NCBI RefSeq assembly: GCF_002087085.1
Contig: NZ_MWQY01000025.1
Coordinates: 1 to 52,664, forward strand
Length of the DNA stretch: 52,664 nucleotides
Reading direction: 5' to 3'
Shown: one piece after another, positions 34,454 through 52,664 of the stretch
Position numbering within the stretch: the stretch's first letter is position 1
Layout: the number at the start of each line of letters is the position of its first letter
The notes under the pieces: generated by a model
Databases searched by the model: none
Seen by the model: the letters and a program-made list of their open reading frames with translations, nothing else
What the model was told of the DNA's origin: nothing
Position numbers and translations under genes: made by a program

Positions 34454-34484
34454 CTCTGGTCCCTCAAATCTGCTGAAAGTAAAA

Positions 34485-35687: not shown

Positions 35688-35689
35688 AA

Positions 35690-37180
35690 TCAGAGTACCC
35701 CCGCCCGCTGCAGTTCTTCGAAGGATGACAGCCCTTCCGCAGCCAGGGTAAGTCCCCGCTGCTTAAGGCCGATCATTCCCTGTTCCCGCAGGTGATGGTC
35801 GAGGGCTGCGGATGTGCCGGCGGAAGCTATTATTCCGGCGGCTTTCCGGTCTACCATAAAGAACTCTGCCGCAGCGATCCGCCCGCGGTATCCCTGATTG
35901 TCGCAGTCCGGGCAGCCGGAAGCGTAAAACTCCTCTTCAGGGCTGGTGAGTCCCGCCCTGTGGTAAAGCTCCGTGTAAAAATCGCCCATGGGACGGGAGC
36001 TGCGGCAGGCGGGGCAGAGCCTGCGGGTAAGACGCTGGGCAATTACCCCCCGCAACACCGCAGCGATCAGGTAGGCTTCGACTCCCAGGTTGATGAGCCT
36101 GCTGACCGCAGAAACCGCGTCGTTGGTATGCAGGCTCGAAAGGACCAGGTGTCCGGTAAGGGCCGCCCGGACCGCGAGCTCCGCCGTCTCGGAATCCCGG
36201 ATTTCTCCCACCAGGATTACATCAGGGTCCTGCCTGAGCACCCGGCGCAGCAGGGTACTGAAACCGAGGCCGATGCGCTCATCCGTCTGGATCTGGTCCA
36301 CCCCGTCAATCAGATATTCCACCGGGTCCTCGATGGTGACGATCTTTATTCCTTCGCTGTTGATACTGCGCAGCATGGCGTTCAGACTTGTGGTTTTGCC
36401 GCTTCCCGTGGGGCCTGTCACCAGAACCATGCCGTGGGGGTTTTTTAAGAGCTCAGCGATGCCGGCAAGACAATCCTCCGGCAATCCCAGATCCGTCAGG
36501 CTGAAGGCCGAATCATCGGCATTGAAGATCCTCAGGACAATGGATTCCGCCCCGGCTCCGGCGGCGGTGGGAACACAGGAAACCCGGATGTCCACATTGC
36601 TCCCCGCCATGTTTACCGTAAGGCGACCGTCCTGGGGACGTCGGCGTTCCATGAGGTTGAGCCCCGCCATGACCTTGATGCGGGAGGCGAGCCCGGAAAA
36701 ACGCTCCGCCGGCAGGGTCTGATGCACCCGGAGCACGCCGTCTATGCGGTAGCGGACAATGGTTGTATCGGCGAAGGCCTCAAGGTGTATGTCCGAGGCC
36801 CGCCGCCGGATGGCTTCGATGCAGATGCTGTTTACCAGGTTGATGACCGGCGCGTCGGAAGCCAGGGCCTCCAGGTCGAGTTTATCCTTGTATCCTGAAT
36901 TGACCGGGCCGGCGGACTCATCGTCGCCGGAGCCCATAAGGCGCCCGAGCCAGGCGGAAAACTCGGCGGAATCCAGCGTTTTTACTGTAATCGGCTTCCG
37001 GTGAAAATCGCGCAGGATACGCTGCAGTTCGCAGGTGTCCCCGTCAACGGCGCCGACTGTTACGCGGCTCTCGTCTTCCTGCAGTTTAAGGACCCTGTTG
37101 GCGCGAATAAATTCCCGGCCGTACTGCTCTTTACCCCGGGGAAGAGGGGCGTAGGCAAGGAGTGAGACCGTACCATTCAT
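35690..37180 (-). CDS. gspE: Type II secretion ATPase GspE
   Basis: ASDIHLE, PQDGR, Walker A GPTGSGKT, TIEDPVE, LRQDPDVILVGEIRD, TGHLVLSSLHTN, tetracysteine CPAC/CPDC. Confidence 0.93.
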   Translation of the reverse strand: MNGTVSLLAYAPLPRGKEQYGREFIRANRVLKLQEDESRVTVGAVDGDTCELQRILRDFHRKPITVKTLDSAEFSAWLGRLMGSGDDESAGPVNSGYKDKLDLEALASDAPVINLVNSICIEAIRRRASDIHLEAFADTTIVRYRIDGVLRVHQTLPAERFSGLASRIKVMAGLNLMERRRPQDGRLTVNMAGSNVDIRVSCVPTAAGAGAESIVLRIFNADDSAFSLTDLGLPEDCLAGIAELLKNPHGMVLVTGPTGSGKTTSLNAMLRSINSEGIKIVTIEDPVEYLIDGVDQIQTDERIGLGFSTLLRRVLRQDPDVILVGEIRDSETAELAVRAALTGHLVLSSLHTNDAVSAVSRLINLGVEAYLIAAVLRGVIAQRLTRRLCPACRSSRPMGDFYTELYHRAGLTSPEEEFYASGCPDCDNQGYRGRIAAAEFFMVDRKAAGIIASAGTSAALDHHLREQGMIGLKQRGLTLAAEGLSSFEELQRAGVL

Positions 37181-39369
37181 TGAGAGTCCTCTTCAGGGGA
37201 GGAGAAATACTTCGCGTACAGGCGCCGGGCCTCGGCCATGCGGCTGAGCTTCTTTTTCTCCGGATATTCCACATGGGGCACCACGTAGATGACCATCTCC
37301 GTGGTATCGGTGCTTTCGCTGCGGCTCTGAAACAGGCGCCCCAGAAGGGGAATGTCCCCCAGGATAGGGGTTTTACTGATGGATATGTCCTGGTCTTGCT
37401 GAATCAGGCCTCCGATGACCACGGGCTTGCCGGAAGGACTGCGCACGTGGGTGGAGACGACCTTTTCCGTGGTTGTCGGAGGATTGGTGGTTGACGACTC
37501 CGAACCCTGGCGGCTGACGGTGGCGGAGATCTCCATGGTGATCATTCCGTCCCCGGAGACCCAGCCGTTCAGGTTGATAATAAGACCGGAGGTCAGCTCC
37601 CGGGTAACCCCCGTGGATTTGAGCTCCCCGGTGTCGGAATCGATTTCGTAATCCCGGTAGCGGTATGTATTGGTATTCTGAAATTTCAAGGTCTCTCCGG
37701 ATATCCCGTTCAGGGTTGTGTCCGCCATAATGCTGGCCCTGGTTTCGCTCAGGGAGAGGCTCAGGTCCACAGCGAAAAGATAGCCGAAGTTGGAGACGAT
37801 ATCGAAGTTCAGATTCAGCAGGGAACCGATGGAACCGAGAAAGGTGGTCTCGTCGCCGTCATTGGCAACCTTGTTCTCGTAATTGGTGTTCCAGTTTAGG
37901 CCCTGTCCCTCCTGGTACTGGACCACCAGCAGGTCGTAACGGATCTGGGGAACCGGACGGTCGACAAGGGCCAGCTGCCGGAGGAACTCCTCTTTTCTGC
38001 TCTCCGGGCCCGTGTAAAAGACCAGGGTCGGATCCACGGTGGCGACGATCTCTTCCTTCGCCGCCGCCGGAGGAAGGGACTTGATAAGAGTCTCCGCGGT
38101 AATATACTTAAGCTGCACCGGAAAGTGCCCCGGGGGTGTATCCAGGGCGGCGAGGTAGGCGGAGAAATCCTCCGCCTGGGCATCGCTCACCGGCACGATA
38201 AACGAGTTCGTTCCGGGCAGAACCTTAGGTCCCAAGGCGGAAAGTCGCGGAGGCAGCAGATTCAGGGCGTCCGTAACATCCGCGTAGCCCAGGTCGAATC
38301 GGCGGTAGCTTACGTGCTGCAGGGGCCTGTCCAGGGAACGGATAAAGCTCTCCAGGGGGCCGATCTCCTCCGGGCTGCCCCGTAGAATTATGGTATTGGA
38401 CTCGGTGTCCGCCCGCATAAGGTTTGCCGCCGCCAGATCCGGGGGCAGGAGGGCGGAGACCGACTGGGCCGGAAGGTGTTCCAGGGGGAGGGAGATGGTG
38501 GTTTTGAGTTTTTTCAGGACGTCCCGCCGTTGAATCTCGAAGATATAATAGATGCCGCCGGAAACCTGATAATCACCGTTGGCCTGTTCCAGTACCAGAC
38601 GGAGCAGCTCGCTGAACTCCTTGTCCTCGAAACGGAGTTCCTCCAGCACAGCGTCTCCCCGCATCAGCAGGCTGTACTCCTCTCCTTCGGCGCTGAAAAG
38701 ATCCTTTAAAAGGTCCCGAAAACGCACCCGTTCCAGATCAAGGCTGTACAGCCCCTCGTTATTGCGGGAAAGGAGCTGACCGCGGCGGGAGGCAGGTTCT
38801 CCTGAAGCTGTACGCCGGATATAGAAATAGTCATCTTCTGTTTCCAGTTCATGCTCCGAAAGCCGGGCAGTAAGGACCTCCAGTGCGGCGGCCGGAGACA
38901 GGTCGTCGATGTGGATTGTAAGCCGTTCATTAGGCAGAGCGTCAAACAGCACCGTTTTGCCCATGGCCCGGGAGAGAGCCCGCAGCAGCAGCCGGAGTTC
39001 AACATCCTCTCCGTGAAGGCTGACTGTTCCTGCCTCTTCGTTCCAGCGGGCATCGATGCGGGAGACGTAGATAAGCCCGTCCCGCCTGATGCCGTAGAGC
39101 TTATAGGTATCCAGGAAGACCCGCAGGGCGGTATCGAAATTCATGGTGCTGAAATGGTAGCTGGCGCTGCCGGAGACCGTCTCGTCGGGGATAATGGAAA
39201 CCTCCCCGATGTCTGCCAGCACCATGAGGATATCGGTGATCGGCTGGTTGCGGAAGGAGAGGCGGTCGAGCGTGAGGGGGGCTGCGCCAGTTGTATCCAG
39301 ATCCTGAGAGAACCCAGGGATGAAAGAAAAAACAATAATTATACTTACTATTCGGTATTTCCAATTCAT
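37177..39369 (-). CDS. gspD: Secretin GspD
   Basis: Signal peptide, repeated N-domains, and the secretin signature VVIGGLI...KTPILGDIPLLGRLF...EMVIYVVP. Confidence 0.9.
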   Translation of the reverse strand: MNWKYRIVSIIIVFSFIPGFSQDLDTTGAAPLTLDRLSFRNQPITDILMVLADIGEVSIIPDETVSGSASYHFSTMNFDTALRVFLDTYKLYGIRRDGLIYVSRIDARWNEEAGTVSLHGEDVELRLLLRALSRAMGKTVLFDALPNERLTIHIDDLSPAAALEVLTARLSEHELETEDDYFYIRRTASGEPASRRGQLLSRNNEGLYSLDLERVRFRDLLKDLFSAEGEEYSLLMRGDAVLEELRFEDKEFSELLRLVLEQANGDYQVSGGIYYIFEIQRRDVLKKLKTTISLPLEHLPAQSVSALLPPDLAAANLMRADTESNTIILRGSPEEIGPLESFIRSLDRPLQHVSYRRFDLGYADVTDALNLLPPRLSALGPKVLPGTNSFIVPVSDAQAEDFSAYLAALDTPPGHFPVQLKYITAETLIKSLPPAAAKEEIVATVDPTLVFYTGPESRKEEFLRQLALVDRPVPQIRYDLLVVQYQEGQGLNWNTNYENKVANDGDETTFLGSIGSLLNLNFDIVSNFGYLFAVDLSLSLSETRASIMADTTLNGISGETLKFQNTNTYRYRDYEIDSDTGELKSTGVTRELTSGLIINLNGWVSGDGMITMEISATVSRQGSESSTTNPPTTTEKVVSTHVRSPSGKPVVIGGLIQQDQDISISKTPILGDIPLLGRLFQSRSESTDTTEMVIYVVPHVEYPEKKKLSRMAEARRLYAKYFSSPEEDSQ

Positions 39370-39484
39370 ATCAACAATTTAAGGATTGACGTTATCAGGT
39401 ATAGTGCCAGAAAGATTGATGGAAGTCAAATCGTAAAATGTGAAAAAAGGAAAGATTTGGGTAATTATAAAAAGTAAAAAAATC

Positions 39485-39513
39485 TTGTGATATCACAAAA
39501 CCAGTGCTACTAT
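39485..39513 (+). promoter_or_regulatory. Candidate tatA promoter overlapped by a perfect 14-bp palindrome
   Basis: TTGTGA (39485-39490), 17-bp spacer, TGc-TACTAT extended -10 (39508-39513). Palindrome TTGTGATATCACAA at 39485-39498. Confidence 0.5.
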
Positions 39514-39545
39514 TATGTCCAGAAAGTTTATTTAAGGAGATTGAT

Positions 39546-39731
39546 ATGATCGGAGCCGGTGAAGCCGTCATTCTTGGCGGGGTGTTTATTCTTATCTTTG
39601 GGGCCTCCCAAATTCCGAAAGTCGCTCGATCCGTTGGAGAAGGCATTACGGAGTTAAAGAAATCTATCCGGGAAGCGAAGGATATCGATCTCGATGATCC
39701 TTCCCTGGGCGATAAGACGAAGAATAATTAA
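39546..39731 (+). CDS. tatA: Twin-arginine translocase subunit TatA
   Basis: MIGAGEAVILGGVFILIFGASQIPKVARSVGEGITELKKS (TM, FG hinge, amphipathic helix); AAGGAGA RBS. Confidence 0.88.
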   Translation: MIGAGEAVILGGVFILIFGASQIPKVARSVGEGITELKKSIREAKDIDLDDPSLGDKTKNN

Positions 39732-39745
39732 CAATCGTTTTATAT

Positions 39746-40480
39746 ATGTCCCAGTGTTATTCTTCGGTGCGTCCTGTTCGCAAGGTCATGCCTTTTTGGG
39801 ACCATGTTTATGAACTACGTAACCGAATTGTTCTGGTTATTACATGCTCTGCTCTTTTCTCGGTTGTAAGTTACGTTTTCTACCCTGATGCCGTTGTTCT
39901 GATTCAGTCTATTTTGCGGGAAGAATTATACGTTACCTCAATAACTGAAGGATTCCTGACTCGGCTGAAAACAAGTCTGCTTTTTGGAATTTATTGTTCC
40001 ATTCCTCTCCTTGGTATTCAGATCTCGTTGTTTGCAGCTCCTGCTCTTTCCGGCTCCGAACGTTTTTATCTTGTCGCCGTGTTGGTCTCGTCTTTTATTC
40101 TGATGTCTGCGGGTCTCCTTTTTGCACTTAAGGCTGTTCTGCCGATAAGCCTTAGATTTTTGCGTTCAGAGGTGTTTTACCCAGGCGATGTCAGCAGACT
40201 GCTTTCTTATACGCTTTATCTGCAGTTCTTTTTTCAGTTTATAATAGGTTTTGGTCTGTTCTTTCAATTTCCCATTGTAATAATTATGCTTCTTAAATTT
40301 AGAATTATTGATACTTCTTTTCTGCTCAGGAATTTTAAATACTTTATCGGCATAATCTTTTTGGTCTCCGCAGCTGTTACTCCGCCGGATATAGTATCCC
40401 AGATTTTACTGGCCCTTCCAATGACACTATTGTACGGGGTGTGCATTGTGCTTGGAAAGGTCTTTCGAATGGATGATTAG
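39746..40480 (+). CDS. tatC: Twin-arginine translocase subunit TatC
   Basis: MPFWDHVYELRNR, TEGF, FAAPAL...ER, GLFFQFP, AAVTPPDIVSQ..LALP...LY; about six TM segments. Confidence 0.92.
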   Translation: MSQCYSSVRPVRKVMPFWDHVYELRNRIVLVITCSALFSVVSYVFYPDAVVLIQSILREELYVTSITEGFLTRLKTSLLFGIYCSIPLLGIQISLFAAPALSGSERFYLVAVLVSSFILMSAGLLFALKAVLPISLRFLRSEVFYPGDVSRLLSYTLYLQFFFQFIIGFGLFFQFPIVIIMLLKFRIIDTSFLLRNFKYFIGIIFLVSAAVTPPDIVSQILLALPMTLLYGVCIVLGKVFRMDD

Positions 40481-40481
40481 A

Positions 40482-40736
40482 ATGTTTGGTATTGGATTTG
40501 GTGAATTATTACTCGCCTTGCTGGTGGTTTTTCTGGTATCCCCCAAGGACTTTCCAAAATTCATGAAGAAAGCGGGAGAGTTTATTGCTACAGGAGACAG
40601 AATCCGTAAAGAGATGTTCGCTTTGCGAAACGAGGTAGTGTCCATAGCGGAAAATCTGGAGATTGATGAAGAAACCGTAAAAAAGAGAAAAAAAGATAAT
40701 CAGGAAGAAGTCAATACGAAAACGGAGAATGGATGA
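40482..40736 (+). CDS. tatB: TatB/TatA-family subunit
   Basis: MFGIGFGELLLALLVVFLVSPKDFPKFMKKAG, a TatB-like N-terminus. Confidence 0.75.
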   Translation: MFGIGFGELLLALLVVFLVSPKDFPKFMKKAGEFIATGDRIRKEMFALRNEVVSIAENLEIDEETVKKRKKDNQEEVNTKTENG

Positions 40737-41912
40737 ATGTTGCGCAATCCCTGGATATACATTACGGAAGCGTGTAATCTCAGATGTAAATATTGTTTTA
40801 ATCCCAATAAAGTATTGAGTCGTGCAAACACGATTACATTATCGAACTTCAAACAAATTATTGAGAATATCCTGTTCTATTCTGATATCTCTGAAGATAT
40901 GCCCTTGCGGATTGTTTTATTCGGCGGAGAACCGACCTTATATCCGGAATTGTTGAAGGAATTGATGGACTATGCCTATGGACGGCTTGAAGGGAAGGTT
41001 CAGTTTCATTTAATAACCAACGGGACAAATATAACCGCAGTCGGAGATTGCATGATTGAGTACAGTCAGAAGTCTGCTTTAAGTATACAGCTTTCGATTG
41101 ATGCTGCTCCGGAAAATCTTACGCTAAGGGTCGGAGATGATAAACGACAAATCTATGAAGACTCGTTAAGAAAAACATTTGATTTTCTGCTGGATAACTC
41201 GATCAGGTTTTCTATTCGAGCAACCCTATCCCCGGAACAAGTTGAAGATTTATGGGAGAATTTCAGGTATTTTGTGTCCGTCTATGATGAATCCGACAAA
41301 ATTACATCCAATATAACTTTTTCACCTGATTTTCTTACTGGAAAGTGGAGCGAAGATAATTTCTCTCGTTTAGATGAACAGGTTGATAAAATTGTTTCCT
41401 GTATTACTAATGAATATGTAGAGAAAAAAAGGATCTTACACGAAACAAATACAAAAAGAGCATTTACTAATCTTTACCGGAAAAAAAACAAAACTACACC
41501 ATCGCGGCGTACCTTCTGCGGCTTTTCCAATAATCTGTTTTCAATAGCTCCCAACGGCGATGCATTTGCCTGTCATCGGGTATATGAGAACACGCGTTTA
41601 CAGTTTGGCAATTTTCTTGATGGAACAATCGATATCGCGAAATTCAACGGAATCTATGCTGCATATAACAACGCCCAGTTTATACGACCAAACAAACGAA
41701 TAGGGATAGAGAAGTGCAGTGACTGTGAAATACAATGGAATTGTGCATCTGTATGTCCGGCCGAGAATGCACACAGCACCAGCAGCGCTGAAATCGAGTA
41801 TGAGTGTGATTATGTGATGTACCGTATGCAGAAATCCTTTGCTGTACATGTTGAGAAGTATATGACTTCTCTGCTGGAAGATGAAGAATATAAAAAAAGA
41901 ATGGTTAATTAA
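40737..41912 (+). CDS. Radical SAM/SPASM-domain maturase
   Basis: CNLRCKYC, FGGEPTL, ITNGT, LSIDA; full SPASM motifs C-x12-G-x4-C and Cx2Cx5Cx3Cx16C. Confidence 0.92.
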   Translation: MLRNPWIYITEACNLRCKYCFNPNKVLSRANTITLSNFKQIIENILFYSDISEDMPLRIVLFGGEPTLYPELLKELMDYAYGRLEGKVQFHLITNGTNITAVGDCMIEYSQKSALSIQLSIDAAPENLTLRVGDDKRQIYEDSLRKTFDFLLDNSIRFSIRATLSPEQVEDLWENFRYFVSVYDESDKITSNITFSPDFLTGKWSEDNFSRLDEQVDKIVSCITNEYVEKKRILHETNTKRAFTNLYRKKNKTTPSRRTFCGFSNNLFSIAPNGDAFACHRVYENTRLQFGNFLDGTIDIAKFNGIYAAYNNAQFIRPNKRIGIEKCSDCEIQWNCASVCPAENAHSTSSAEIEYECDYVMYRMQKSFAVHVEKYMTSLLEDEEYKKRMVN

Positions 41913-41924
41913 GGGAAGAGTGAT

Positions 41925-42725
41925 TTGATGGTTATTCAGAAAATAGACTTTCGGACCTTGGATAGGGAAAACATAAAGACAATGGTTACCAGGATCGGGA
42001 ATAACAAAAAACCTGTTTGCAAACATATTCTAATGATATCCGTAGCGCACCCGGCAGATTTAACAGGCTTGGGAACAATATCCGGTCATTTTTTTAGAAA
42101 GATTTTAGAGATCCCGGCAGGACATTTATCTGCTGTTTCCAATGAACAGCTTTCTGGATTCGACGAAAGTGTGATCAACTGCTTCGGCATGGATGACGTC
42201 GCAGAGATATCCAGGAATGATCTATTATTCTCGAATAATGTTATTTCAATTGTATATAAAGGAGACATCTCTTCTGCTGAAGCGGTCGTCACCGTTCTTG
42301 ATACTTTCGAGCACAAACCCATCAAATCTCTGATAATTGAATCGGAGAAGGTCTGCCGGGACCACAGCGATAAACAGAAATGTATAGAGAATATCTTGAA
42401 AAAAAAGGATTGGCTATCAACTATCGATTTTCAATGCTGGTATCTGAACGAACTGGTTCCGGCAAAATGTGTCTTCCTGGAACAGGCTGACCTGGAAGTG
42501 TTTATCAATGGTGAACGTGCTGTTTGCCCACGCCTAACAGATGAAGGTTTTGTGCACATCACTAAATCTGAAGTCGACACGTTAAAACGCAAGCTTATTG
42601 TAGCACGACTGGAACAGTATTTGATGATGCAAAAAAGGTTTTCGTGCATAGAGTGCCGTAAGGTATTTGGCACGGTATCTCATACGATGCCAGTAAATTT
42701 AAAGGAGTGTATTTATGAAAAATGA
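41925..42725 (+). CDS. Hypothetical protein with twitch/SPASM-like Cys motif, no CxxxCxxC
   Basis: C-x13-G-x4-C (CVFLEQADLEVFINGERAVC) and a later CIEC; overlaps the Rhs start. Confidence 0.6.
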   Translation: MMVIQKIDFRTLDRENIKTMVTRIGNNKKPVCKHILMISVAHPADLTGLGTISGHFFRKILEIPAGHLSAVSNEQLSGFDESVINCFGMDDVAEISRNDLLFSNNVISIVYKGDISSAEAVVTVLDTFEHKPIKSLIIESEKVCRDHSDKQKCIENILKKKDWLSTIDFQCWYLNELVPAKCVFLEQADLEVFINGERAVCPRLTDEGFVHITKSEVDTLKRKLIVARLEQYLMMQKRFSCIECRKVFGTVSHTMPVNLKECIYEK

Positions 42726-45700
42726 AAAGGAATCATCGGATAAAAGTCAGGATATCGATCAGAATATTGACAGACGAGAGTTTCTATCCATTAGTCTAAA
42801 GACGATACTCGGTTCCTCTGTTGGCATTGCATCGTTTATTTCAACAAAAGATACGTTATATGCAGATGATAGAGGCTGCGCTGACTACTGCGGAGGAGAT
42901 TGTATTACCTATGGGAGCGGAGGATGTACGTGTGATGGGGATGATGACAGTTGCAATGACAGTTGTGATGATTGTTCTTCCGACTATTCAGAAGAAATAG
43001 CCGAAGCTCAAGAAGCCATAGCCGCTGCGGAAGAGAAAATTGAAGACGCACAGGCGGCTTATGACGAGGCGATCGCCGCCGGTGATGAAAGGGCTGTGCA
43101 GGCAGCGCGGGATGAAATCCGGGCAGCTGAGGCTTCCCGGGAAGAAGCCGCTGAACGGGTAAGCGAAGCAGAGGCAAAGCAACGGGAAGCCAAGGAAGCC
43201 GCCGCACAGTTTCGGGCAAAATTGGCTCAGACCCAGAACCAGGCTAACAGTACCGTTACCGGCGATCCGGTACGTATAGCCACAGGGGTGTTCCATACGG
43301 AAGTAACTGACCTGTCAATACCGTATCTCGGTTCAAACATTACCTTGCAGCGTCAGTATGAAAGCGATAAAACCTACGGTAAATCTTTCGGTACCGGCTG
43401 GAACTTCTCTTACGATACCCGCATCATCCTTGGTGTGGACCCTGATGCTGCTGAAACTGCGGAACTACTGACAGGATTCGCCGAAACTCAGCGCAGCGAC
43501 TACTATCAGAGGCAAACCGGTCTTGCTGGCGCAACAAGCTCCATGAACACGGCCAAAACAAAGGTCGATGCCGCCCAGGCTACGATTGCGGCTGCACTGC
43601 AGTCAGCCCAGACCGCCCTGGCCAAGGCTCGAGCATCCCACAGCTCATCGCTTATTGCACAGGCCCAGGCGCTGGTGAATCAGATTTCCGGTTCCGGTGG
43701 CTTGACCGGCCAGGCGGCTGAGGTTGAAACCAGGGTCGATGCTGTTTTGACCGAGCTTGCCGATTCAGACGCGACTCTGGAAGAGCTGGATACGCTATGC
43801 GTGGAGCTGGAGAATCTTGCATCGGATGCTAACGACAGAAACGACTATGCAAGTGCAGCTGCGGAACGAAACCTCTACGTAACCGACGGAAACGAACCGC
43901 CTTCCTTTCTCAATACCGGCAACGGTACCTGCACCTGGGTGGATCAAAGTGGAGTTCCCCATTATTACACTCTTGACAAGGCTCCGGACTACAGTAGTGA
44001 TGTACAGTATACGGATGGCAGCAGAAATTACTTTCCCCAGGGCGCCCTCGGCATCCCCCAGCTGCCTATCGATGACGTGTTGCATCTGAACTCACACGGA
44101 ACATGGACCCTTGTGCGCAAGGACCTGCATCATTTTGAGTTTTCGTTTCTCGGGTTGCTCAGCTCGATCAGTGACGCCAACAATAATCAGCTTGCATGTA
44201 CGTACAGCAAGGGTTTGCTGTCCGTGATAAATGATGATTTTGGGAGAACGATCAGGATAACACGGAGCGGAAAAAAGATCTCTGCAATAATATCACCCGA
44301 AGGGTATTCCATCAGTTTTAGCTATAACCTCGACGGAATGCTTGCATCCGTTACCGACCCTGAGGGCGATACTATATCCTACGAATACGACGGTTCGCTT
44401 CTTACCGCTATTGTCAAACCGGATGGCAAACGACGGCGATATATCTATGAATCCCTGTCCGGGACCATGGTTGTTAGCCAGGCAATCGATGAAGAGGGCA
44501 TGAGCGAATATTTCCGCTATTACCCTGCTTCCGGCTACAGCGAATATGAAAACGCTTCCGGTATTGTTGAACGACACTACTACAACGAGCGCAAGCTGGA
44601 AACAAAGGTCGAATACGGTGACGGCGGGACCATCTCCATGGAGTATGATGAGAACAACAACCTGATCAAGCGTACCAACGAGGTCGGTGAAACCTATCAT
44701 TTTACCTATGACGGGCGACGTAACCTGATTGAGTCGATTGACCCACAGGGTCATGCCCAAAAATGGACCTATAACGACATAGACAAGGTAAGCTCCTATA
44801 CTGATCGCCTGGGACGGACTACCGGCTATACCTACGATTCGAAAGGCAATCTTATCGTGCAAGAACTCCCCGACGGCGCTGAAATACATTACGAATATAA
44901 TGATCGAGGACAACGTACCAAAACCACCGACCCCCGCGGCAATTCAACCCTGTTCAGGTATGATTCCCATGGCTACCCGGCATCGGAAACAAGCCCCGAC
45001 GGTACAGTTCGCCGTTTTAAGAACGACCTAACCGGGAATATCCTGGAAGTCACCGATCAGGCAGGATATACAACCACCTATACCTACCGCAAAGACAAAA
45101 AGCTGGTTTGCCTGACCGATCCGGAAGGCAACACTGAAACCTACGAGTACAACAAGCGTAAAGACCTTGTAGCCAAAACCGACAAACGCGGCAATCGTAC
45201 AGAGTTTACTTACGATGGACGGCATCTATTGATCAAGGCAACCAACCCCCTGGGGGAAACCGCAGAGTACAGCTATCGGGCCGACGGCAGGATGATACAA
45301 AAACTCATCGATAAAAAAAGCACCACCAGCTACACTTATGATTCCCGCGGCAACCTGGCCTCCGTAACGCAGCTGGAAACCAACAGCACCGTCCGTTACG
45401 AATATGACGCAGCCCAGCGCCTTACCAAAGTAACCGACCCTAACGGAAACGCAACCTGGTACGACTACACCCTGCTCGGCGATATCGCCAGAGAGGAAAA
45501 CGCCCTGGGTAACATCCGAAGTTTTACCTACGACGCTGAACAAAACCGTACCTACCAGACCGACTTTGCCGGAAACACAACAGAATACCGCTATGATGTC
45601 CGTAACCGCCTGACCGAGTTAATCGACCCCGACAACAAACGGGAACAGTATACATATGACCTAACCGGCAACCGCACCGCGGTAATCGACAAGAACGGCA

Positions 45701-48700
45701 ACACTACGGTTTTCGAATACGACGCCCTGAACCGGCTTATCAAACAGACCGATCCCTTGAACAACACAATCAGGTATGAGTATGAGCCCAGAGGCTTGGT
45801 GAGCAAGCGGACCGACCGGAACGGCGGAACCGTTCTGTTTGCCTACAACTCCCTCGGCACAATCGTAACCGCCACCGACCCTGCAGGCAACACAATCGAA
45901 ACCACCTACAACGAGACCTCCCAGCCCCGTACCCGGAAAGACCGGAACGGTAACATTACAGCTTTCGAATATGACTCCTTAAACCGTCTGATTATAACCC
46001 GCGACCCCTACGGCCACGAAACCAGGCGCAGCTACAATTACCTCGGCCTTGTCGCCGCCATAACCGACCCCCTGGGCAACACCCGTACTTTCGACCATGA
46101 CCCTGCAGGCCGCCTGGTAAAGACAACTGACCCCTTAGGTGGAACGAAACAGTATACGTACGACCCTGCCGGCAACCTTATTTCGTACCAGGATGAAATG
46201 AAGCGGGAAACCGGCTATACCTACGATCAACTCAATCGACTGAAAAGCAGCACCAATGCCCTGGGAGAAAATTACAGCTACACCTACGATGTTAACGGCA
46301 ACCTCATAAGGGAAACCGACCCGGAAGGCAGCGCCTACCAGTATGAATATGACAAACTGAACCGTCTGAAAAAAGAGATAAACCGCCTGGGCGCAGCACA
46401 AACCTACACCCGGGACCCGGTCGGGAACCTGCTGAGCAAAACAGACTTCAACGGAGATCTCACCGCCTATACCTACGACCCGGTAGACCGCCTAATAAAC
46501 ACAAGCTTTGCAGACGGCAGTACCAAAATCTACAGCTATGATGCTGAGGGCAACCTTACCTCAGCCGAGAACCCAGAAAAGCAGCTGGCCTTCAGCTATG
46601 ACCCGGTAAACCGCCTGAGTGAAGTCTATGACTCCAGCGTCGACGACACCGTACGCTACACCTATGATGCCGAAGGCAATCGCCTCTCCACTCACTGGAA
46701 CGAGGGCAACCGCACCATAAACCGCAGCTACGGTAAAGCCAACGAACTGTTAACCGTAACCGATCCCGACGGCACCACCACCGCTTTTACCTACGATGCC
46801 CTGCTGCGGGAAACCGAATGCAAACGTCCGAACGACGTGGTAACAGAAACAGTCTACGACCCTGCAGGAAGGATAACCAGCATAAAGAACTTCGAAGACA
46901 AACACTGGCGGGATACCCTCTTAAGCTCGTTTGCCTACCTCTACAACGCTGCCGGGGAACGTAGGCATCAGATAGATGAAGAGGGGAACATCGAAACTTA
47001 CCAGTACGATGCAGTGGGACGCATTGCCGAAGCTCAGTATCCGTTCAACAGCGGAAAACCTGCCGAAGACTTTGATCAGCGCCTGCGTTTCGGCCTCTAT
47101 CCTGAAGAGGGGAGTAGTAGCTCTCATAACCACGGACATGGACACCACAACGACGAGCGTTACACCTTCAACCTGCCCCGAACCCCGGACAACGACTTTA
47201 TCAACAAGCTCAAAGATATTGCCGAACCCCAGGAAGAGGTCTTCCGGTACTACCGGAAAAAGAAAAAGGATTACCACCCGCGATGGCGCATTCAGCCCGG
47301 TGACGGTGCAACCCGGTTTGCCGCGCGGCTGTCTCTGGATCAAACTTCGCGGGAACAACTCCGAACAGCCTATCAGGACCTGACCGGCAGCCGCAGGCAC
47401 TTCGACGCAGACCCGTGGGTATGGACTGAAAACTTTACCTACGACAGCAGAAACAACCTCACCAGCAAAGCCAACGGCTGGGGAGCCGTACCCTTCAGCT
47501 ACAACGCTGCCAATGAGTTAACACAAGCCGGAGAGAGAACCTACACTCATGATGCCAACGGCAACCTTACCCGGGAAGCCTTAAATGAGGTAAGCGCCGA
47601 CTACAGCTACACCCCGGAGAACCGTATCGAACAGATAGAAACCGAAATTGAAGCCTTCATGAGTCACCACTGCGATGGTGAAACCGGGGTACGCTATACC
47701 TATGATTCCCTGGGACGGCGAAGCTCTCGGACGGCCTATACAACCAAGAGTAATCATGGCTGGCACAACGAGATTGAGTGGAACAAGGAATCGAACCAGA
47801 GTTACCTCTATGACGGTCTGTCTTTCAATGTATTAGCAGAATTAAAAGACACCCAGTTTAGGGTGGACACTCACGGAAGAACTCATCGCCGCACCTCACG
47901 TTACCAGTGGCAACCTGTTAGTGAATACCTCTACGGCAATGGGAGCAGGCTGATCAGTAAAACCGCCTTTGCCACAAACGAACGCTTCGGCAATCGCTAC
48001 CCCCGTCATACCGACACAGACTATTATCTGCAGGATGTGTTGGGATCGGTAGTCGGGATTACCGATGAACGGGGGAACCAGACGGAGGCCTACAGCTTTG
48101 ATGTATGGGGCAACCACTATGATCGACCCAACCAGACAAACAGCACTCATACCGATGCTGGCTGGAATGCGTTGCCGGCCACGTTATTCGGCTTCAACGG
48201 GAAGAAGTTTGATCCGAAGGTCGGACTGTATGATTATGGTTTCAGGGATTATAAGCCTGCCATTAACAGGTGGACCACCATAGACCCAATACGCGCGGGG
48301 AAGAACTGGTACGCCTATGTGGAGAATGATCCGGTGAATTGGGTTGATTTGTGGGGGTTGCTGCCGGAGGTGGGAGGGACTGGTCAGGTTGATGATCCGT
48401 TGGAACGAGCAATTATTGATAATTTAGACTTCGATGAACCTGGTAGCAAGTGTGATGAATTTTGTACCGAAGTTATGGATGATGCAGGCTTGACTCCCAA
48501 TGATTGGCCTGATCCTGATGATTATAAAGTTGGTGAAAACCCTGAAGATATACCTAATTATATTGATCATTATAGTAGTCAGACACAAGATGTACCAAAT
48601 ACTGGTGCAAACGCAGTGATGATGGAAACCGGTCACCCAGCAGAGCATATGGGTATTGTAGATGTTGAAGAGGATGGTTCTATTTCGGGAGCTCATTATA

Positions 48701-48795
48701 GTGGTGGAGAAGTCGAACAATTCGAATATGACAATCAAAATGATTTTGAAGACGCTTTTGTATATGAAGATTTTCATTATCTTCCTTTGGAGTAG
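42715..48795 (+). CDS. Rhs/YD-repeat polymorphic toxin: Tat signal, Cys/Asp-rich segment, coiled coil, DUF6531-like domain, YD repeats, Rhs core, C-terminal toxin
   Basis: DRREFL; GDPVRIATG...FGTGW; many YD/TDPxG repeats; core FNGKKFD..GLYDYGFRDY...RWTTIDP...YAYVENDPVNWVDLWGL; AAGGAG RBS. Confidence 0.95.
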   Translation: MKNEKESSDKSQDIDQNIDRREFLSISLKTILGSSVGIASFISTKDTLYADDRGCADYCGGDCITYGSGGCTCDGDDDSCNDSCDDCSSDYSEEIAEAQEAIAAAEEKIEDAQAAYDEAIAAGDERAVQAARDEIRAAEASREEAAERVSEAEAKQREAKEAAAQFRAKLAQTQNQANSTVTGDPVRIATGVFHTEVTDLSIPYLGSNITLQRQYESDKTYGKSFGTGWNFSYDTRIILGVDPDAAETAELLTGFAETQRSDYYQRQTGLAGATSSMNTAKTKVDAAQATIAAALQSAQTALAKARASHSSSLIAQAQALVNQISGSGGLTGQAAEVETRVDAVLTELADSDATLEELDTLCVELENLASDANDRNDYASAAAERNLYVTDGNEPPSFLNTGNGTCTWVDQSGVPHYYTLDKAPDYSSDVQYTDGSRNYFPQGALGIPQLPIDDVLHLNSHGTWTLVRKDLHHFEFSFLGLLSSISDANNNQLACTYSKGLLSVINDDFGRTIRITRSGKKISAIISPEGYSISFSYNLDGMLASVTDPEGDTISYEYDGSLLTAIVKPDGKRRRYIYESLSGTMVVSQAIDEEGMSEYFRYYPASGYSEYENASGIVERHYYNERKLETKVEYGDGGTISMEYDENNNLIKRTNEVGETYHFTYDGRRNLIESIDPQGHAQKWTYNDIDKVSSYTDRLGRTTGYTYDSKGNLIVQELPDGAEIHYEYNDRGQRTKTTDPRGNSTLFRYDSHGYPASETSPDGTVRRFKNDLTGNILEVTDQAGYTTTYTYRKDKKLVCLTDPEGNTETYEYNKRKDLVAKTDKRGNRTEFTYDGRHLLIKATNPLGETAEYSYRADGRMIQKLIDKKSTTSYTYDSRGNLASVTQLETNSTVRYEYDAAQRLTKVTDPNGNATWYDYTLLGDIAREENALGNIRSFTYDAEQNRTYQTDFAGNTTEYRYDVRNRLTELIDPDNKREQYTYDLTGNRTAVIDKNGNTTVFEYDALNRLIKQTDPLNNTIRYEYEPRGLVSKRTDRNGGTVLFAYNSLGTIVTATDPAGNTIETTYNETSQPRTRKDRNGNITAFEYDSLNRLIITRDPYGHETRRSYNYLGLVAAITDPLGNTRTFDHDPAGRLVKTTDPLGGTKQYTYDPAGNLISYQDEMKRETGYTYDQLNRLKSSTNALGENYSYTYDVNGNLIRETDPEGSAYQYEYDKLNRLKKEINRLGAAQTYTRDPVGNLLSKTDFNGDLTAYTYDPVDRLINTSFADGSTKIYSYDAEGNLTSAENPEKQLAFSYDPVNRLSEVYDSSVDDTVRYTYDAEGNRLSTHWNEGNRTINRSYGKANELLTVTDPDGTTTAFTYDALLRETECKRPNDVVTETVYDPAGRITSIKNFEDKHWRDTLLSSFAYLYNAAGERRHQIDEEGNIETYQYDAVGRIAEAQYPFNSGKPAEDFDQRLRFGLYPEEGSSSSHNHGHGHHNDERYTFNLPRTPDNDFINKLKDIAEPQEEVFRYYRKKKKDYHPRWRIQPGDGATRFAARLSLDQTSREQLRTAYQDLTGSRRHFDADPWVWTENFTYDSRNNLTSKANGWGAVPFSYNAANELTQAGERTYTHDANGNLTREALNEVSADYSYTPENRIEQIETEIEAFMSHHCDGETGVRYTYDSLGRRSSRTAYTTKSNHGWHNEIEWNKESNQSYLYDGLSFNVLAELKDTQFRVDTHGRTHRRTSRYQWQPVSEYLYGNGSRLISKTAFATNERFGNRYPRHTDTDYYLQDVLGSVVGITDERGNQTEAYSFDVWGNHYDRPNQTNSTHTDAGWNALPATLFGFNGKKFDPKVGLYDYGFRDYKPAINRWTTIDPIRAGKNWYAYVENDPVNWVDLWGLLPEVGGTGQVDDPLERAIIDNLDFDEPGSKCDEFCTEVMDDAGLTPNDWPDPDDYKVGENPEDIPNYIDHYSSQTQDVPNTGANAVMMETGHPAEHMGIVDVEEDGSISGAHYSGGEVEQFEYDNQNDFEDAFVYEDFHYLPLE
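45658..46289 (+). repeat. Copy 1 of a ~630-bp near-identical direct repeat (Rhs YD region)
   Basis: Aligns at a constant offset of 4753 to 50411-51042 with scattered substitutions. Confidence 0.9.
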
Positions 48796-48799
48796 ACTT

Positions 48800-49861
48800 A
48801 TGAAAATATGGAAGAGTGCATACATAATTTTAGTTATATTATCCTGTAGCTGTAGTGTTTTCCCTCAAAATGATCTGAGAAGAATAAGATTTGAATTTGA
48901 AAGCTCAACTGGATATTTGAATTCAGATTTAGGGGTTGTTATACCAGCACAGTTTGATTCCGGGACAGATTTCGTCGATGGTATAGCAGTAGTAAAAGAT
49001 GAGAAAGGCTATCATGTAATAAATGAAAAAGGTGAAATTGTTTTTCGTACAGAGGCGGATTACGTTGAAAAACCAAATAATGGAATGATCCTATTTAAAA
49101 TGGATGGAGTATATGGTTTTTATGACTACACTGGTAAAGTAAAACTAGAGGGATATTTGCATGCAAAATCGTTTAGTGAGGATTATGCAATAGTAAGAAC
49201 AACACAAAAAGCATATTATATAAACAAACATGGCGAAGATGTTTTTCCAGATTTGGTTATATCAGGAGGAGGAAATTTTTCTAATGGGTATGCTGTTTTT
49301 TGGGTCAAAACAAATGAGGGCATACAAAAGGGGTTAATAAATAATAGTGGAGAGATTATACTTCCACCAAAGTTTACTATTCTGGGTGAGTTTTCAGATG
49401 GGTTGTGTGAAGCGTCATTTAATGACAAAGTGGGGTACATCGATTTAAGTGGAAGATTCGTTATTCCACCTAAATATAATTATGGTTTCGCTTTTAATCA
49501 AGGAATTGCTGCAGTTCAATATCGTACGTTCGAAAGAAAACAACCGTTCTATCCATTCTGGCGACTTATTAATAAAAGTGGTGATATAGTAAAGGATTTA
49601 TCTGAAGATGTTGTAGTGTTTTCTGATTTTATTGAAAATTATGCAATAATTGGCGTTTTTGACAACACGCGAGAAAAAATGCTATACGGATATTTAAAAA
49701 AAAATGGGGAAACATTAATCAATCCGATATTTGATGACGCTGATGTTTTTCATGATGGCTATGCAGTCATAGAGTACAAAGGTCGTGATGCACTTCTTGA
49801 TAAATTTGGAACAATTATTTATTTGAGGGATATATTAAATCCTCATGTCACTTCGCGGTAA
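48800..49861 (+). CDS. Exported WG-repeat protein, putative cognate immunity protein
   Basis: ATG 4 nt after the toxin stop; signal/lipobox-like MKIWKSAYIILVILSCSC; repeats of GYI(D/N)xxGxxVIxPxF...FSEGxAxV; AT-rich. Confidence 0.82.
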   Translation: MKIWKSAYIILVILSCSCSVFPQNDLRRIRFEFESSTGYLNSDLGVVIPAQFDSGTDFVDGIAVVKDEKGYHVINEKGEIVFRTEADYVEKPNNGMILFKMDGVYGFYDYTGKVKLEGYLHAKSFSEDYAIVRTTQKAYYINKHGEDVFPDLVISGGGNFSNGYAVFWVKTNEGIQKGLINNSGEIILPPKFTILGEFSDGLCEASFNDKVGYIDLSGRFVIPPKYNYGFAFNQGIAAVQYRTFERKQPFYPFWRLINKSGDIVKDLSEDVVVFSDFIENYAIIGVFDNTREKMLYGYLKKNGETLINPIFDDADVFHDGYAVIEYKGRDALLDKFGTIIYLRDILNPHVTSR

Positions 49862-50220: not shown

Positions 50221-50357
50221 GGCAAGGGATTGGAGGGGCGCCGAAGGCGGACCCCGCAGGGACTGAAAGGTCCGAGGAGGCCGGAGCGATAGCGGAGCCC
50301 CGGAAAGCCCGGTCCTGCACCTACTTTTCAATGTTGAAAAGTAGGTGCAGGGATGCC
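50221..50357. repeat. GC-rich multi-hairpin REP-like element ending in a perfect 18-bp inverted repeat
   Basis: CGCC-GAA-GGCG, CCC-GCA-GGG, GGAC-TGAAAG-GTCC, enclosing GGGGC/GCCCC, and CCTGCACCTACTTTTCAA-TG-TTGAAAAGTAGGTGCAGG at 50314-50351. Confidence 0.6.
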
Positions 50358-50392
50358 GCCAGACAGAACCGCGCAAATCCGAAAAAAAATCC

Positions 50393-52664
50393 GTGCGAAT
50401 CCGCGGTATCGACCTAACCGGCAACCGTACCGCGGTCATCGACAAGAACGGCAACACTACGGTTTTCGAATACGACGCCCTGAACCGGCTTATCAAACAG
50501 ACCGATCCCCTGAACACAACAATCAGGTATGAGTATGAGCCCAGAGGCCTGGTGGGCAAGCGGACCGACCGGAACGGCGGAACCGTTCTGTTTACCTACA
50601 ACTCCCTCGGCACAATCGTAACCGCCACCGACCCTGCAGGCAAGACAATCGAAACCACCTACAATGAGACATCTCAGCCCTGTACCCGGAAAGACCGGAA
50701 CGGTAACACTACAACCTTCGAGTACGACCCCTTAAACCGTCTGATTATAACCCGCGACCCCTACGGCCACGAAACCAGGCGCAGCTACAATTACCTCGGC
50801 CTTGTCGCCGCCATAACCGACCCCCTGGGCAACACCCGAACTTTCGACCATGACCCTGCAGGCCGCCTGGTAAAAGTAACTGACCCCTTAGGTGGAACGA
50901 AACAGTATACGTACGACCCTGCCGGCAACCTTATTTCGTACCAGGATGAAATGGAGCGGGAAACCGGCTATACCTACGATCAACTCAATCGACTGAAAAG
51001 TACTACCAATGCCCTGGGAGAAAACTACAGCTACACCTACGACGAGAACGGCAACCTGAGGGCGGAAATCGACGGCGAAGCGAAAGCCCACAGCTATGAA
51101 TACGACAAACTGAACCGCATTATACAGGAGATAGACCGGCTCGGAAACACCCAGAGTTACACCTACGACGCGGAAGGGAACATCCTGAGTAAGAAAGATT
51201 TTAACGGTGATCAGTCAGAATACTTCTATGACAAACTGAACCGCAGAATCGAAACCCGTTTTGCGAACGGAGAGACCAAACGTTTTGAATATGACCCGGC
51301 AGGCAACCTTGTAGGCGCGGAAAACGGCGAAAAAGCCTTGAGCTTCGCCTATGATCCGGTAAATCGTCTGACAGAAGCAAGCGACGGCCTGCTGAACGAA
51401 ACAACCCGCTACGCCTACGACCCTGCCGGGAACCGCATCCGCGCCGAAAGGAAGAAGGCCAATCGCATAACAACCTACACCTATGGAAAAGCGAACGAGC
51501 TGCTCTCGGTTACCGACCCGGACGGCAAAACCACCGGCTACCGTTACGACGCCCTTGGACGCGAAACGTATAGAACGACCCCGAACGACGTGGTAACAGA
51601 AACAGTCTACGACCCTGCAGGAAGGATAAGCGCCATAAAGTCCTACGAAAAGAAGCGGGGACACAACACGGTCCTCTACTCCTTTGCTTACCTCTACAAC
51701 GAAGCGGGAGAGCAGACATTCCGGATAGACGAAAAGGGCGAGGTCATGAGCTTTGCCTACGACGAAGCGGGACGCATAGCCGAAGTGCGCTACCCCTTTG
51801 AAAGCGGGAAGCCCGAGACCGACTTTGAACAGCGGCTGAACTTCGGCCTCTATCCTGAGGAGAAAACGAGTACGTCCAGAGGAAACAAGCGGCATGGGGA
51901 TGGTGACGAAGGAATGAGCTTTGCGCTGCCGCAGGTAGACAATGACCACGAGCTTAAAGAACGGCTTAAGGAACGTTCCGTCCCCAGGATGGGGGTCTAC
52001 AAAAAGTACCGGGGATTATCGTCGCATGAACATCCCCGCTGGCATGTGACCCCGGGTGAGGGAGCGACGCCCTTCGCGACCAGACTGAACCTTGATCCTG
52101 AAACAAAGAACCAACTCCAGGACGCCTATCGGGAGATCAACCCTTACAGCCGCCGTTTCAACGACCATCAGTATCAATGGACCGAGACTTTCGGCTACGA
52201 TACACGAAACAATCTTTCTACAAGCGCCAACGGCTGGGGGAGGGTGGACTACAGCTACGATGAAGCCCACCGGCTAAAGCAGACAGGAAACAGAAACTAC
52301 CTGCATGACAAAAACGGCAACCTGATAAAAGAGTACCTGGGCGAAGAAGACGGCCCCCTAAGCGCTGACTATACTTATACGCCGGAAAACCGCATAGCCC
52401 AAATCGAAACACACTTCGAAGGCTTCCTGCCCGGACAACTGGAAGCCGACAGCGGAGTCCGCTACACCTACGACGCCCTGGGCCGGCGAAGCTCCCGGGC
52501 ATCCTACCTGAGCAAAAGCTATGGTTTCAGTAAACAACTGGAATGGAACAGGGAGAGTACGGAGACCTACTTATACGAAGCCCTGAGCTTTGACATCTTG
52601 GTGGAATATCGAGATACTGAGTATGAAGTGAACCGACGAAGCAGACACTTCTTCCCATCCTTCT
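50393..52664 (+). CDS. Orphan (5'-truncated) Rhs cassette, runs off the window end
   Basis: Hand translation is open from GTG 50393 (frame opens at 50345) to the window end. Homology to the main Rhs begins at 50411, equivalent to residue 982; no signal peptide or N-terminal domains. Confidence 0.88.
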   Translation, partial: MRIRGIDLTGNRTAVIDKNGNTTVFEYDALNRLIKQTDPLNTTIRYEYEPRGLVGKRTDRNGGTVLFTYNSLGTIVTATDPAGKTIETTYNETSQPCTRKDRNGNTTTFEYDPLNRLIITRDPYGHETRRSYNYLGLVAAITDPLGNTRTFDHDPAGRLVKVTDPLGGTKQYTYDPAGNLISYQDEMERETGYTYDQLNRLKSTTNALGENYSYTYDENGNLRAEIDGEAKAHSYEYDKLNRIIQEIDRLGNTQSYTYDAEGNILSKKDFNGDQSEYFYDKLNRRIETRFANGETKRFEYDPAGNLVGAENGEKALSFAYDPVNRLTEASDGLLNETTRYAYDPAGNRIRAERKKANRITTYTYGKANELLSVTDPDGKTTGYRYDALGRETYRTTPNDVVTETVYDPAGRISAIKSYEKKRGHNTVLYSFAYLYNEAGEQTFRIDEKGEVMSFAYDEAGRIAEVRYPFESGKPETDFEQRLNFGLYPEEKTSTSRGNKRHGDGDEGMSFALPQVDNDHELKERLKERSVPRMGVYKKYRGLSSHEHPRWHVTPGEGATPFATRLNLDPETKNQLQDAYREINPYSRRFNDHQYQWTETFGYDTRNNLSTSANGWGRVDYSYDEAHRLKQTGNRNYLHDKNGNLIKEYLGEEDGPLSADYTYTPENRIAQIETHFEGFLPGQLEADSGVRYTYDALGRRSSRASYLSKSYGFSKQLEWNRESTETYLYEALSFDILVEYRDTEYEVNRRSRHFFPSF
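50411..51042 (+). repeat. Copy 2 of the ~630-bp near-identical direct repeat (start of the orphan Rhs)
   Basis: Begins GACCTAACCGGCAACCG, as at 45658; strong divergence starts after about 51042. Confidence 0.9.

Follow-up and report, generated by a model that had tools for sequence, protein, structure and literature searches.

How a giant Rhs toxin could come to begin with something like the precursor of an enzymatically modified peptide is the question raised by a locus on contig NZ_MWQY01000025.1 of assembly GCF_002087085.1, of which the window, meaning the whole stretch of DNA analysed, covers positions 1 to 52,664 (52,664 nt). There, tightly packed and on the same strand, follow one another tatA, tatC, a tatB-like gene, the gene of a radical S-adenosylmethionine (radical SAM) enzyme with a SPASM domain, that of a 266-aa partner protein, and the rhs gene itself. 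Our analysis indicates that residues 1 to about 92 of the Rhs protein are probably a precursor module of the kind targeted by radical SAM enzymes in CXXX-repeat systems, joined to a stalk of helices and the Rhs shell; the module would be cross-linked and the protein exported by the twin-arginine translocation (Tat) pathway. All the support for this proposal is comparative, and consists of gene content, homologies and co-occurrences.

The Head of the Rhs Protein

The first-pass annotation had described a twin-arginine RREFL motif, a weakly hydrophobic region and a putative LYA/DD cleavage site at the start of a toxin of about 2000 aa, and all of these were present as described. The protein has 2026 aa, with RHS repeats and an Rhs-associated core. 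Its R20 and R21 lie within the sequence D19-R-R-E-F-L, which is followed by 15 uncharged residues; residues 22–42 are weakly hydrophobic (Kyte-Doolittle means over 11 residues between 0.1 and 1.7), and a basic residue, K45, precedes the presumed cut site, where L48-Y49-A50 stands ahead of D51-D52. The Tat consensus motif is of the S/T-R-R-x-F-L-K type, and the leader fits it with D-R-R-E-F-L in the window genome and D-R-K-E-F-L in the orthologue from a second genome of the genus, G002.

Behind the leader, 10 Asp, 8 Cys and 7 Gly were counted among residues 53–91. The cysteines occupy positions 55, 59, 63, 71, 73, 80, 84 and 87 (nt 42877–42975), and the other 1993 residues of the protein contain 8 Cys more. 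At the background rate, the probability of at least 8 Cys in a window of 33 residues is about 9e-13, or about 2e-9 when multiplied by the number of windows, so the cluster is far beyond chance. The number and positions of the cysteines and the richness in Asp and Gly were thus as annotated before, while the CxxxC spacing attributed to them was found in only three of the seven Cys-to-Cys gaps, the remaining ones being x7, x1, x6 and x2. AlphaFold2 predicted no fold for the head, with pLDDT (per-residue confidence) values below 45 over the core.

A Second Genome and the Joint Divergence of Enzyme, Partner and Toxin

When 60 relatives were searched for the radical SAM enzyme, G002 was the one further member of the genus to carry it, with the whole arrangement repeated. 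The Rhs head of G002, the only orthologue found, shows D-R-K-E-F-L, then L-H-A, and then 15 Cys; CxxxC spacing accounts for 10 of its 14 gaps, the tetrad CSGD appears seven times in succession, and an Asp stands at position +3 after nine of the 15 Cys. Eight Cys are kept at aligned positions in both heads, in a region that is only 47% identical.

The identities between both genomes were 94% for the secretin of the neighbouring type II secretion system (T2SS), 99% for tatA, 91% for tatC and 93% for tatB, against 46% for the radical SAM enzyme, 33–38% for the partner and 52% for Rhs. Conservation breaks at the junction between tatB and the radical SAM gene (window 40736/40737), with the tat genes to its left at 91–99% and the genes to its right at 33–52%. 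Because identity drops at this very point, the enzyme and its partner appear to travel and change with the toxin and not with the translocase. Such joint divergence would be the behaviour of an enzyme-substrate set, and the break looks like a boundary left by recombination, with a toxin cassette that can be exchanged together with its maturase.

Free-Standing Relatives of the Head

A word search with Rhs residues 1–100 among proteins of 1114–3546 aa recovered only the Rhs protein itself, and ESM Atlas queries with the N-terminus gave scores below 0.85, which serve as leads only. When a profile made from the two heads was run against 5.8 billion sequences (short proteins), 33 matches at E ≤ 1 were obtained, the best of them at 1.9e-7 and 6.8e-5. 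The matched proteins, of 67–205 aa, contain runs of CxxxC (276 pooled gaps of this spacing against at most 14 of any other) with the repeat consensus C-S-G-[S/D], and ten of the 33 carry RRx plus two hydrophobic residues, as in the leader S-R-R-E-F-F-K-K. One of them, P0032, passes the cut-off of TIGR04117, "Cys-Xaa-Xaa-Xaa repeat radical SAM target" (53.6 against 50), and another, P0031, that of TIGR01409, TAT_signal (18.6 against 16.7). Alignment of nine sequences, the Rhs heads and peptides, showed R20, F23 and five Cys to be invariant, and the start of the core is R-G-C-A-D-N-C-S-G-D-C in peptide P0042 as compared with R-G-C-A-D-Y-C-G-G-D-C in Rhs. The leader part of the profile also matched RRxFL leaders of molybdoenzyme-like and binding proteins in the phylum.

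Scanning metagenome contigs with three such peptides yielded 60 loci (L033–L092), which are not independent, since many are near-copies, and in which the twin-arginine motif is present 60 times out of 60 by construction, as all were selected through the leader. An open reading frame (ORF) for a radical SAM/SPASM protein was found downstream of the peptide in each of the 39 loci whose downstream flank reaches 1500 nt or more, and tatC, with tatA just before it, in all 15 loci with at least 7500 nt; over the complete set of 60, the counts were 46 for the radical SAM gene, 28 for tatA and 24 for tatC. Loci L039 and L062 presented the order peptide, TIGR04115 radical SAM enzyme (about 640 bits), TIGR04119, TIGR04116, tatA and tatC. 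Their TIGR04119 protein, a "CXXX repeat peptide maturase", also matched SPASM-domain and radical SAM/SPASM models weakly, and 39 ORFs in the peptide loci are homologues of this family. The complete peptide ORFs (54) encode 41–254 aa, and none of the 54 is a large or fused protein. In addition, G188, a genome of the same phylum as the window, has a canonical CXXX cluster that includes a tatB-like gene besides tatA and tatC.

Since the kin peptides sit with a radical SAM gene and tatC, the head of the Rhs protein resembles a radical SAM-plus-Tat type of precursor that has been fused to a toxin. This kinship with free-standing radical SAM targets supports the earlier proposal of a precursor like those of RiPPs (peptides made on the ribosome and modified after translation), fused in frame to the toxin. 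The accompanying suggestion that the signal doubles as leader is plausible: as the kin peptides sit with a radical SAM gene and with tatA and tatC of their own, the Rhs signal may well be both leader and export signal.

A lipobox-like motif precedes the repeats in 14 of the 60 stand-alone peptides, so some CXXX peptides may be Tat-exported lipoproteins.

The Radical SAM Enzyme and Its Partner

The neighbouring enzyme had been taken for a SPASM radical SAM protein, and the comparison with curated families and solved structures agrees. It contains the CX3CX2C motif (C13/C17/C20) and a 7-Cys SPASM domain (C261, C279, C327, C330, C336, C340 and C357). Among 67 NCBIfam families, the best match was PapB (NF047865, 153 bits), and further matches, below cut-off, were to QhpD (73.6 bits) and SCIFF (70 bits), with 43 bits for HxsB; the curated families nearest to it are all maturases of Cys-rich peptides. 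Its closest solved relative is CteB (5wgg, E 1.1e-22), and as the alignment covers only chain residues 97–425, the N-terminal recognition domain of CteB is without counterpart here. Searches with an alignment of the enzyme found only relatives of 19–24% identity in GTDB genomes, in Clostridia-type metagenome-assembled genomes, and no relatives in the metagenome contig collection.

The 266-aa partner matched no Pfam or NCBIfam family and has no CX3CX2C. Six relatives were detected among 1.84 billion representatives, and C182, C201, C241 and C244 are invariant in them and in the partner, in a layout (C-x13-G-x4-C, a gap, C-x2-C) which we take to be the first half of the SPASM/twitch signature. 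The AlphaFold2 model, of mediocre quality (pLDDT 59.5), shows a beta/alpha domain at residues 58–177, and with this model Foldseek returned only TIM-barrel-like matches with TM-scores up to 0.29; VIA-align placed DesII, PqqE and SkfB among its top rows, at Z values up to 7.4, in the range of a common fold. The ESM Atlas neighbours were SPASM-only and radical SAM/SPASM clusters (feature score 0.93, TM-score 0.62–0.70), one of them a GeoRSP SPASM protein. Sequence comparison with the PDB and hhalign against the radical SAM alignment gave nothing, the partner profile had only two chance-level matches (E about 0.005) in 400 further genomes of the phylum, and it had none in the 60 peptide loci. Its place beside the radical SAM gene is that of the TIGR04119 protein in the CXXX-repeat clusters. 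Several weak and concordant lines of evidence thus suggest that it is a degenerate second subunit of radical SAM/SPASM type.

The Tat Genes and the Compositional Seam

The number of tatC copies per genome of the genus is two in the window genome and in G002, one in G003 and G004, and zero in G001 and G005. Hence tatC is duplicated only where the cassette is present (two of six genomes), the extra copy being that of the locus, and a second TatABC set was likewise found only in these two genomes. The closest relative of the locus tatC is that of the G188 CXXX cluster (204 bits), as compared with 111 bits for the other tatC of its own genome. In an IQ-TREE phylogeny, the locus and G188 cluster copies grouped together (ultrafast bootstrap 90, SH-aLRT 91) and fell outside the clade of housekeeping tatC (99/95), in a tree whose branches are long and whose bootstrap is unsettled. 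The stop codon of the tatB-like gene abuts the ATG of the radical SAM gene (40736/40737). No match to Pfam TatA_B_E was found for its product, and the true start of this gene is probably an internal Met codon just 3' of the tatC stop.

The second tatC of genomes G007 and G040 was considered as a possible similar system and rejected, as its neighbours have leaders of RRxFL type and tblastn found no radical SAM enzyme, partner or Rhs there; on inspection by eye, what lies there resembles common redox enzymes.

Base composition also changes along the locus. GC is 59% in the T2SS genes, 40–45% in tatA, tatC and tatB, 38.5% in the radical SAM gene and 40% in that of the partner, and within rhs it is 35% in the leader, 48% in the Cys-rich core, 58% in the stalk and 52–55% in the shell. 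Across window positions 39000–43000 it falls from about 59% to 38–45%, and it recovers within the rhs ORF once the Cys-rich head is passed, and therefore a compositional seam lies within this ORF, behind the head. Such a seam fits the arrival of the head with the cassette and its joining to the Rhs body.

Proposed Mechanism and Alternative Explanations

In the sequence of events that we propose, the adjacent PapB-like enzyme and its SPASM-like partner would cross-link the cysteines of the core in the cytoplasm, after translation. The most likely products would be thioethers from Cys sulfur to Asp, or to another side-chain carbon, as in ranthipeptides; this type is favoured because the nearest curated families form thioethers, because Asp stands at +3 after four of eight Cys in the window genome and after nine of 15 in G002, and because the C-X-X-Q/D motif of CrpA provides a precedent. 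The folded and modified protein would then be exported by the TatA, TatC and TatB of the same gene run, and cutting of the leader near A50/D51 would leave the mature toxin with the knot as its outermost N-terminal part, carried by a long helix. The weakest step is the last one, in which the neighbouring T2SS would carry the toxin across the outer membrane, the sole support for this being the recurrent position of YD proteins beside the T2SS.

Several observations weigh against a modified and Tat-exported head. The core of the window genome is irregular, with CxxxC in three of seven gaps and Asp at +3 after four of eight Cys, and the TIGR04117 model gave only 17.4 bits for this head and 13.3 for that of G002, with a cut-off of 50. 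The enzyme misses the PapB cut-off (153 against 340 bits) and scores 54 bits with TIGR04115, whose cut-off is 350 and whose true members reach about 640, and the partner had no profile match to TIGR04119 at E ≤ 1 and an hhalign probability of 8.7% over the Cys motifs. Among the scanned ORFs of the locus, which include only some of the small ones, no homologue of TIGR04116 was reported. Neither TIGR01409 nor Pfam TAT_signal matched the Rhs leader at E ≤ 10, the leader of G002 has R-K instead of R-R, and a folded Rhs of about 225 kDa would be an unusually large passenger for Tat. In G002, the radical SAM gene (L005, G002:C4, about 12940–14112, minus strand) carries a TAA stop in frame, opposite the Tyr69 codon of the window's enzyme, and is represented among the collected proteins by a 291-aa remainder only, although the Rhs beside it is intact, with 15 Cys; the stop would reflect a loss of recent date or else a mistake in the assembly. 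The GC argument, for its part, is weakened by the short windows used and by the Ala/Glu bias of the stalk, and the fused form is known from two genomes of a single genus.

These points lend themselves to other readings of the same locus. The Cys/Asp segment could bind metal or an Fe-S cluster, or form a disulfide knot, in an Rhs that takes the Tat route because its cofactor or folded shell requires it, with the radical SAM enzyme acting on another residue or substrate; we regard this as unlikely. Tat passengers are typically cofactor proteins, the G002 enzyme is broken and the Cys run is nevertheless kept, and runs of CSGD type are also found at the C-terminal end of a periplasmic LTXXQ-type protein (P0033) and an FKBP-type protein (P0035) with no leader of this kind, where they are probably plain metal-binding tails. 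CrpA, moreover, is suspected by its authors to bind metal (PMC13692751). However, the leader-plus-CxxxC module is followed by a radical SAM gene in all 39 testable loci, the enzyme and partner have diverged along with Rhs and the tat genes have not, the families nearest to the enzyme all act on Cys-rich peptides, and the gene run offers no other Cys-rich candidate target.

The head might also be a captured export tag and nothing more, its leader routing Rhs to the private Tat and its Cys stretch being a relic in decay, neither modified nor required any more. A core that in the window genome is shorter and less regular than in G002 or the stand-alone peptides, a G002 enzyme interrupted by a stop codon and the lack of a predicted fold would suit such decay, which is hard to reconcile with eight Cys kept at aligned positions despite 47% identity, with intact and tightly coupled ORFs for enzyme and partner in the window genome, and with the perfect, undecayed sevenfold CSGD run of G002; we consider this quite unlikely. 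Very unlikely seems a Sec signal, lipoprotein signal or membrane anchor, with the adjacent tat genes serving other proteins. The missing TIGR01409 match, the R-K of G002 and the lipobox-like motif in 14 of 60 stand-alone relatives speak for it, against the RREFL motif with its 15 uncharged residues and the basic residue before the cut site, a leader profile that picks up RRxFL leaders of molybdoenzyme-like and binding proteins in the phylum, and a second tatABC that occurs in the genus only alongside the cassette. Its lipoprotein version was rejected, as a lipobox is not matched by what precedes the first Cys, namely D-R-G in the window genome and A-G-P in G002.

The reading of the head as a precursor module that is cross-linked and exported by Tat could be extended to a RiPP-and-export cassette captured by a polymorphic toxin, in which the thioether knot, as the N-terminal tip of an Rhs cocoon of about 225 kDa, would license passage through the dedicated Tat and then serve as a handle for T2SS release or for docking to the target cell. 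We offer this extension tentatively, and in its full form it is doubtful; if true, such a "RiPP-tipped" toxin would be both the largest known Tat passenger and the largest known substrate of radical SAM thioether chemistry. The role given to the knot in the first-pass annotation, as T2SS tag or receptor-binding tip, is likewise speculative.

Relation to Known Systems

The closest parallel is the CXXX-repeat system (TIGR04114/TIGR04117 targets, TIGR04115, TIGR04119 and TIGR04116), on which no publication was found in the literature searched. Both there and here, a twin-arginine leader is followed by CxxxC repeats, a radical SAM/SPASM enzyme without N-terminal recognition domain is followed by a second protein that lacks the SAM-cluster motif, of SPASM type there and probably SPASM-like here, and tatA and tatC belong to the same cluster, although the curated definition does not include them. 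The differences are that the target is a peptide of 41–254 aa there and the head of a 2026-aa Rhs here, that the enzyme, partner and target of the window all stay below the curated cut-offs, and that the tat genes come first. Since the CXXX-repeat loci examined carry a Tat translocase of their own, their products would be assembled in the cytoplasm and have their site of action outside.

With PapB, CteB and QhpD acting on QhpC, the locus shares a radical SAM enzyme with a full SPASM domain and a target in which Asp follows Cys two to three residues on; it differs in its predicted substrate, a giant secreted protein, in the separate SPASM-like partner, and in lacking the region corresponding to CteB 1–96. 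Whole proteins are known to receive radical SAM thioethers in the cases of QhpC and of CrpA, which has a C-X-X-Q/D motif and, with 28.8 kDa, marks the upper size of such substrates so far (PMC13692751). There, CrpC introduces ranthionine crosslinks into the Cys-rich CrpA and uses an N-terminal region for recognition (PMC13692751). As is proposed here, that is RiPP-like thioether chemistry on a protein and not on a peptide; in contrast, CrpC belongs to TIGR04463 and has an RRE domain, and CrpA is archaeal, with C-terminal Cys repeats and neither Tat nor toxin involved (PMC13692751). The Rhs protein is about eight times larger than CrpA. In the HXS system, the signal-bearing HxsA is matured in the cytoplasm by the radical SAM pair HxsB/HxsC and becomes a periplasmic effector in phage defence (PMC13128918). 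It resembles our proposal in that a signal-bearing protein matured by radical SAM enzymes acts outside the cytoplasm, and differs in its HxS repeat, its radical SAM family and its role against phages, with no dedicated Tat genes reported in the passages considered (PMC13128918).

As in other Rhs/YD polymorphic toxins, the protein combines DUF6531, a YD shell, the Rhs-associated core and a variable tip, and is followed by a small gene and an orphan fragment; in place of a PAAR, VgrG-binding or LXG head, it has the Tat-type leader and the putative radical SAM-target core. Our literature searches found nothing that joined Rhs with radical SAM and twin-arginine, ranthipeptide with twin-arginine, or Rhs with a Tat signal and T2SS. 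The components are thus known, namely Rhs toxins, radical SAM thioether maturases and a curated but apparently unstudied CXXX-repeat family, and it is their union that was not found described. If the proposal is true, it links peptide maturation by radical SAM enzymes with polymorphic toxins, adds a new delivery head for Rhs beside PAAR and LXG, and brings a secreted toxin of 225 kDa within the range of radical SAM thioether chemistry, where peptides and one protein of 29 kDa stood before. Rhs residues 1–100 would be a test case for a Tat leader that doubles as RiPP leader, and they raise the question of whether a private Tat checks for the finished modification before export.

The Rhs Body and the Neighbouring Genes

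The features of the locus are collected in Table 1. An AGGAG sequence resembling a Shine-Dalgarno element was seen by eye about 8 nt 5' of the rhs ATG; a scan for promoters and terminators gave no more matches than shuffled sequence. Behind the head, the AlphaFold2 model of the stalk shows helices at residues 92–122 and 125–177 (pLDDT 80–95 over residues 91–160). DUF6531 (PF20148) follows at residues 183–238 with 47.8 bits, the RHS repeats (PF05593, 443 bits) are spread over 20 stretches, and the Rhs-associated core occupies residues 1813–1882 (TIGR03696, 65.7 bits, cut-off 32.5). Neither Pfam nor NCBIfam reported a PAAR, VgrG-binding or LXG head. The variable C-terminal tip, of about 140 aa (48355–48795), contains Cys and His residues and had no match in Pfam, in PHROG or among solved structures, where the sole hit, a C39-like peptidase (E 0.66), fell short of significance.

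Table 1. Coordinates of the features at the rhs locus, in positions of the window.
Feature	Position	Strand	Remarks
T2SS pseudopilin gspG	33962-34534	-	PF08334
T2SS gspF, gspE, gspD secretin, divergent from tatA	34485..39369	-	PF00482, PF00437, PF00263
tatA	39504..39731	+	PF02416 46.8 bits (cut-off 21); TIGR01411 46 bits (below 53.9 cut-off)
tatC, second, locus-specific copy	39746..40480	+	PF00902 158.6 bits; TIGR00945 142.9 (cut-off 132.7)
tatB-like small membrane protein	40446..40736	+	TIGR01410 35.3 bits (below 56.5 cut-off)
Radical SAM/SPASM enzyme, PapB-like, without N-terminal RRE-type domain	40737..41912	+	PF04055 51.9 bits
266-aa partner: beta/alpha domain and 4-Cys SPASM/twitch-like C-terminal part	41925..42725	+	overlaps rhs start by 11 nt
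Rhs/YD-repeat toxin gene	42715..48795	+	2026 aa; PF05593, PF20148, TIGR03696
Twin-arginine type leader/signal	42715..42864	+	Rhs residues 1-50: RREFL, h-region, K45, L-Y-A
Cys/Asp/Gly-rich core, proposed radical SAM target	42865..42990	+	Rhs residues 51-92; 8 Cys
Ala/Glu-rich helical stalk	42991..43254	+	Rhs residues ~92-177; AlphaFold2
WG-repeat protein	48800..49861	+	PF14903 123 bits; GC 33%; directly after toxin tip
Orphan Rhs C-terminal fragment, runs off contig	50345..52663	+	RHS repeats 273 bits

On the other side of the tat genes, the secretin of the T2SS was found in all five other genomes of the genus, and therefore the T2SS is taken as core and the cassette as inserted beside it. Next to this conserved system, genome G003 (L028, G003:C185, 5812–15978) encodes a 3388-aa YD protein of TcB/TcC-like type (SpvB, TcdB_midN, RHS) with a Sec-like signal. 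At the same site, only C-terminal pieces of Rhs remain in G001 (L025), no such YD protein was found within 16.8 kb of the T2SS in G005, and the contig of G004 ends 1.6 kb away. To judge from these gene neighbourhoods, large toxins with a YD shell have a hotspot beside the T2SS.

Within the shell region of Rhs, residues ~1466–1480 form an insert rich in Ser and His, S-S-S-S-H-N-H-G-H-G-H-H, which is conserved neither in the orphan copy nor in G002. Downstream of the toxin, the WG-repeat protein may be a candidate immunity protein for the Rhs tip. The orphan Rhs fragment showed 81% identity to the main Rhs of G002 and 65% to that of its own genome, and may be a store of the other Rhs allele.

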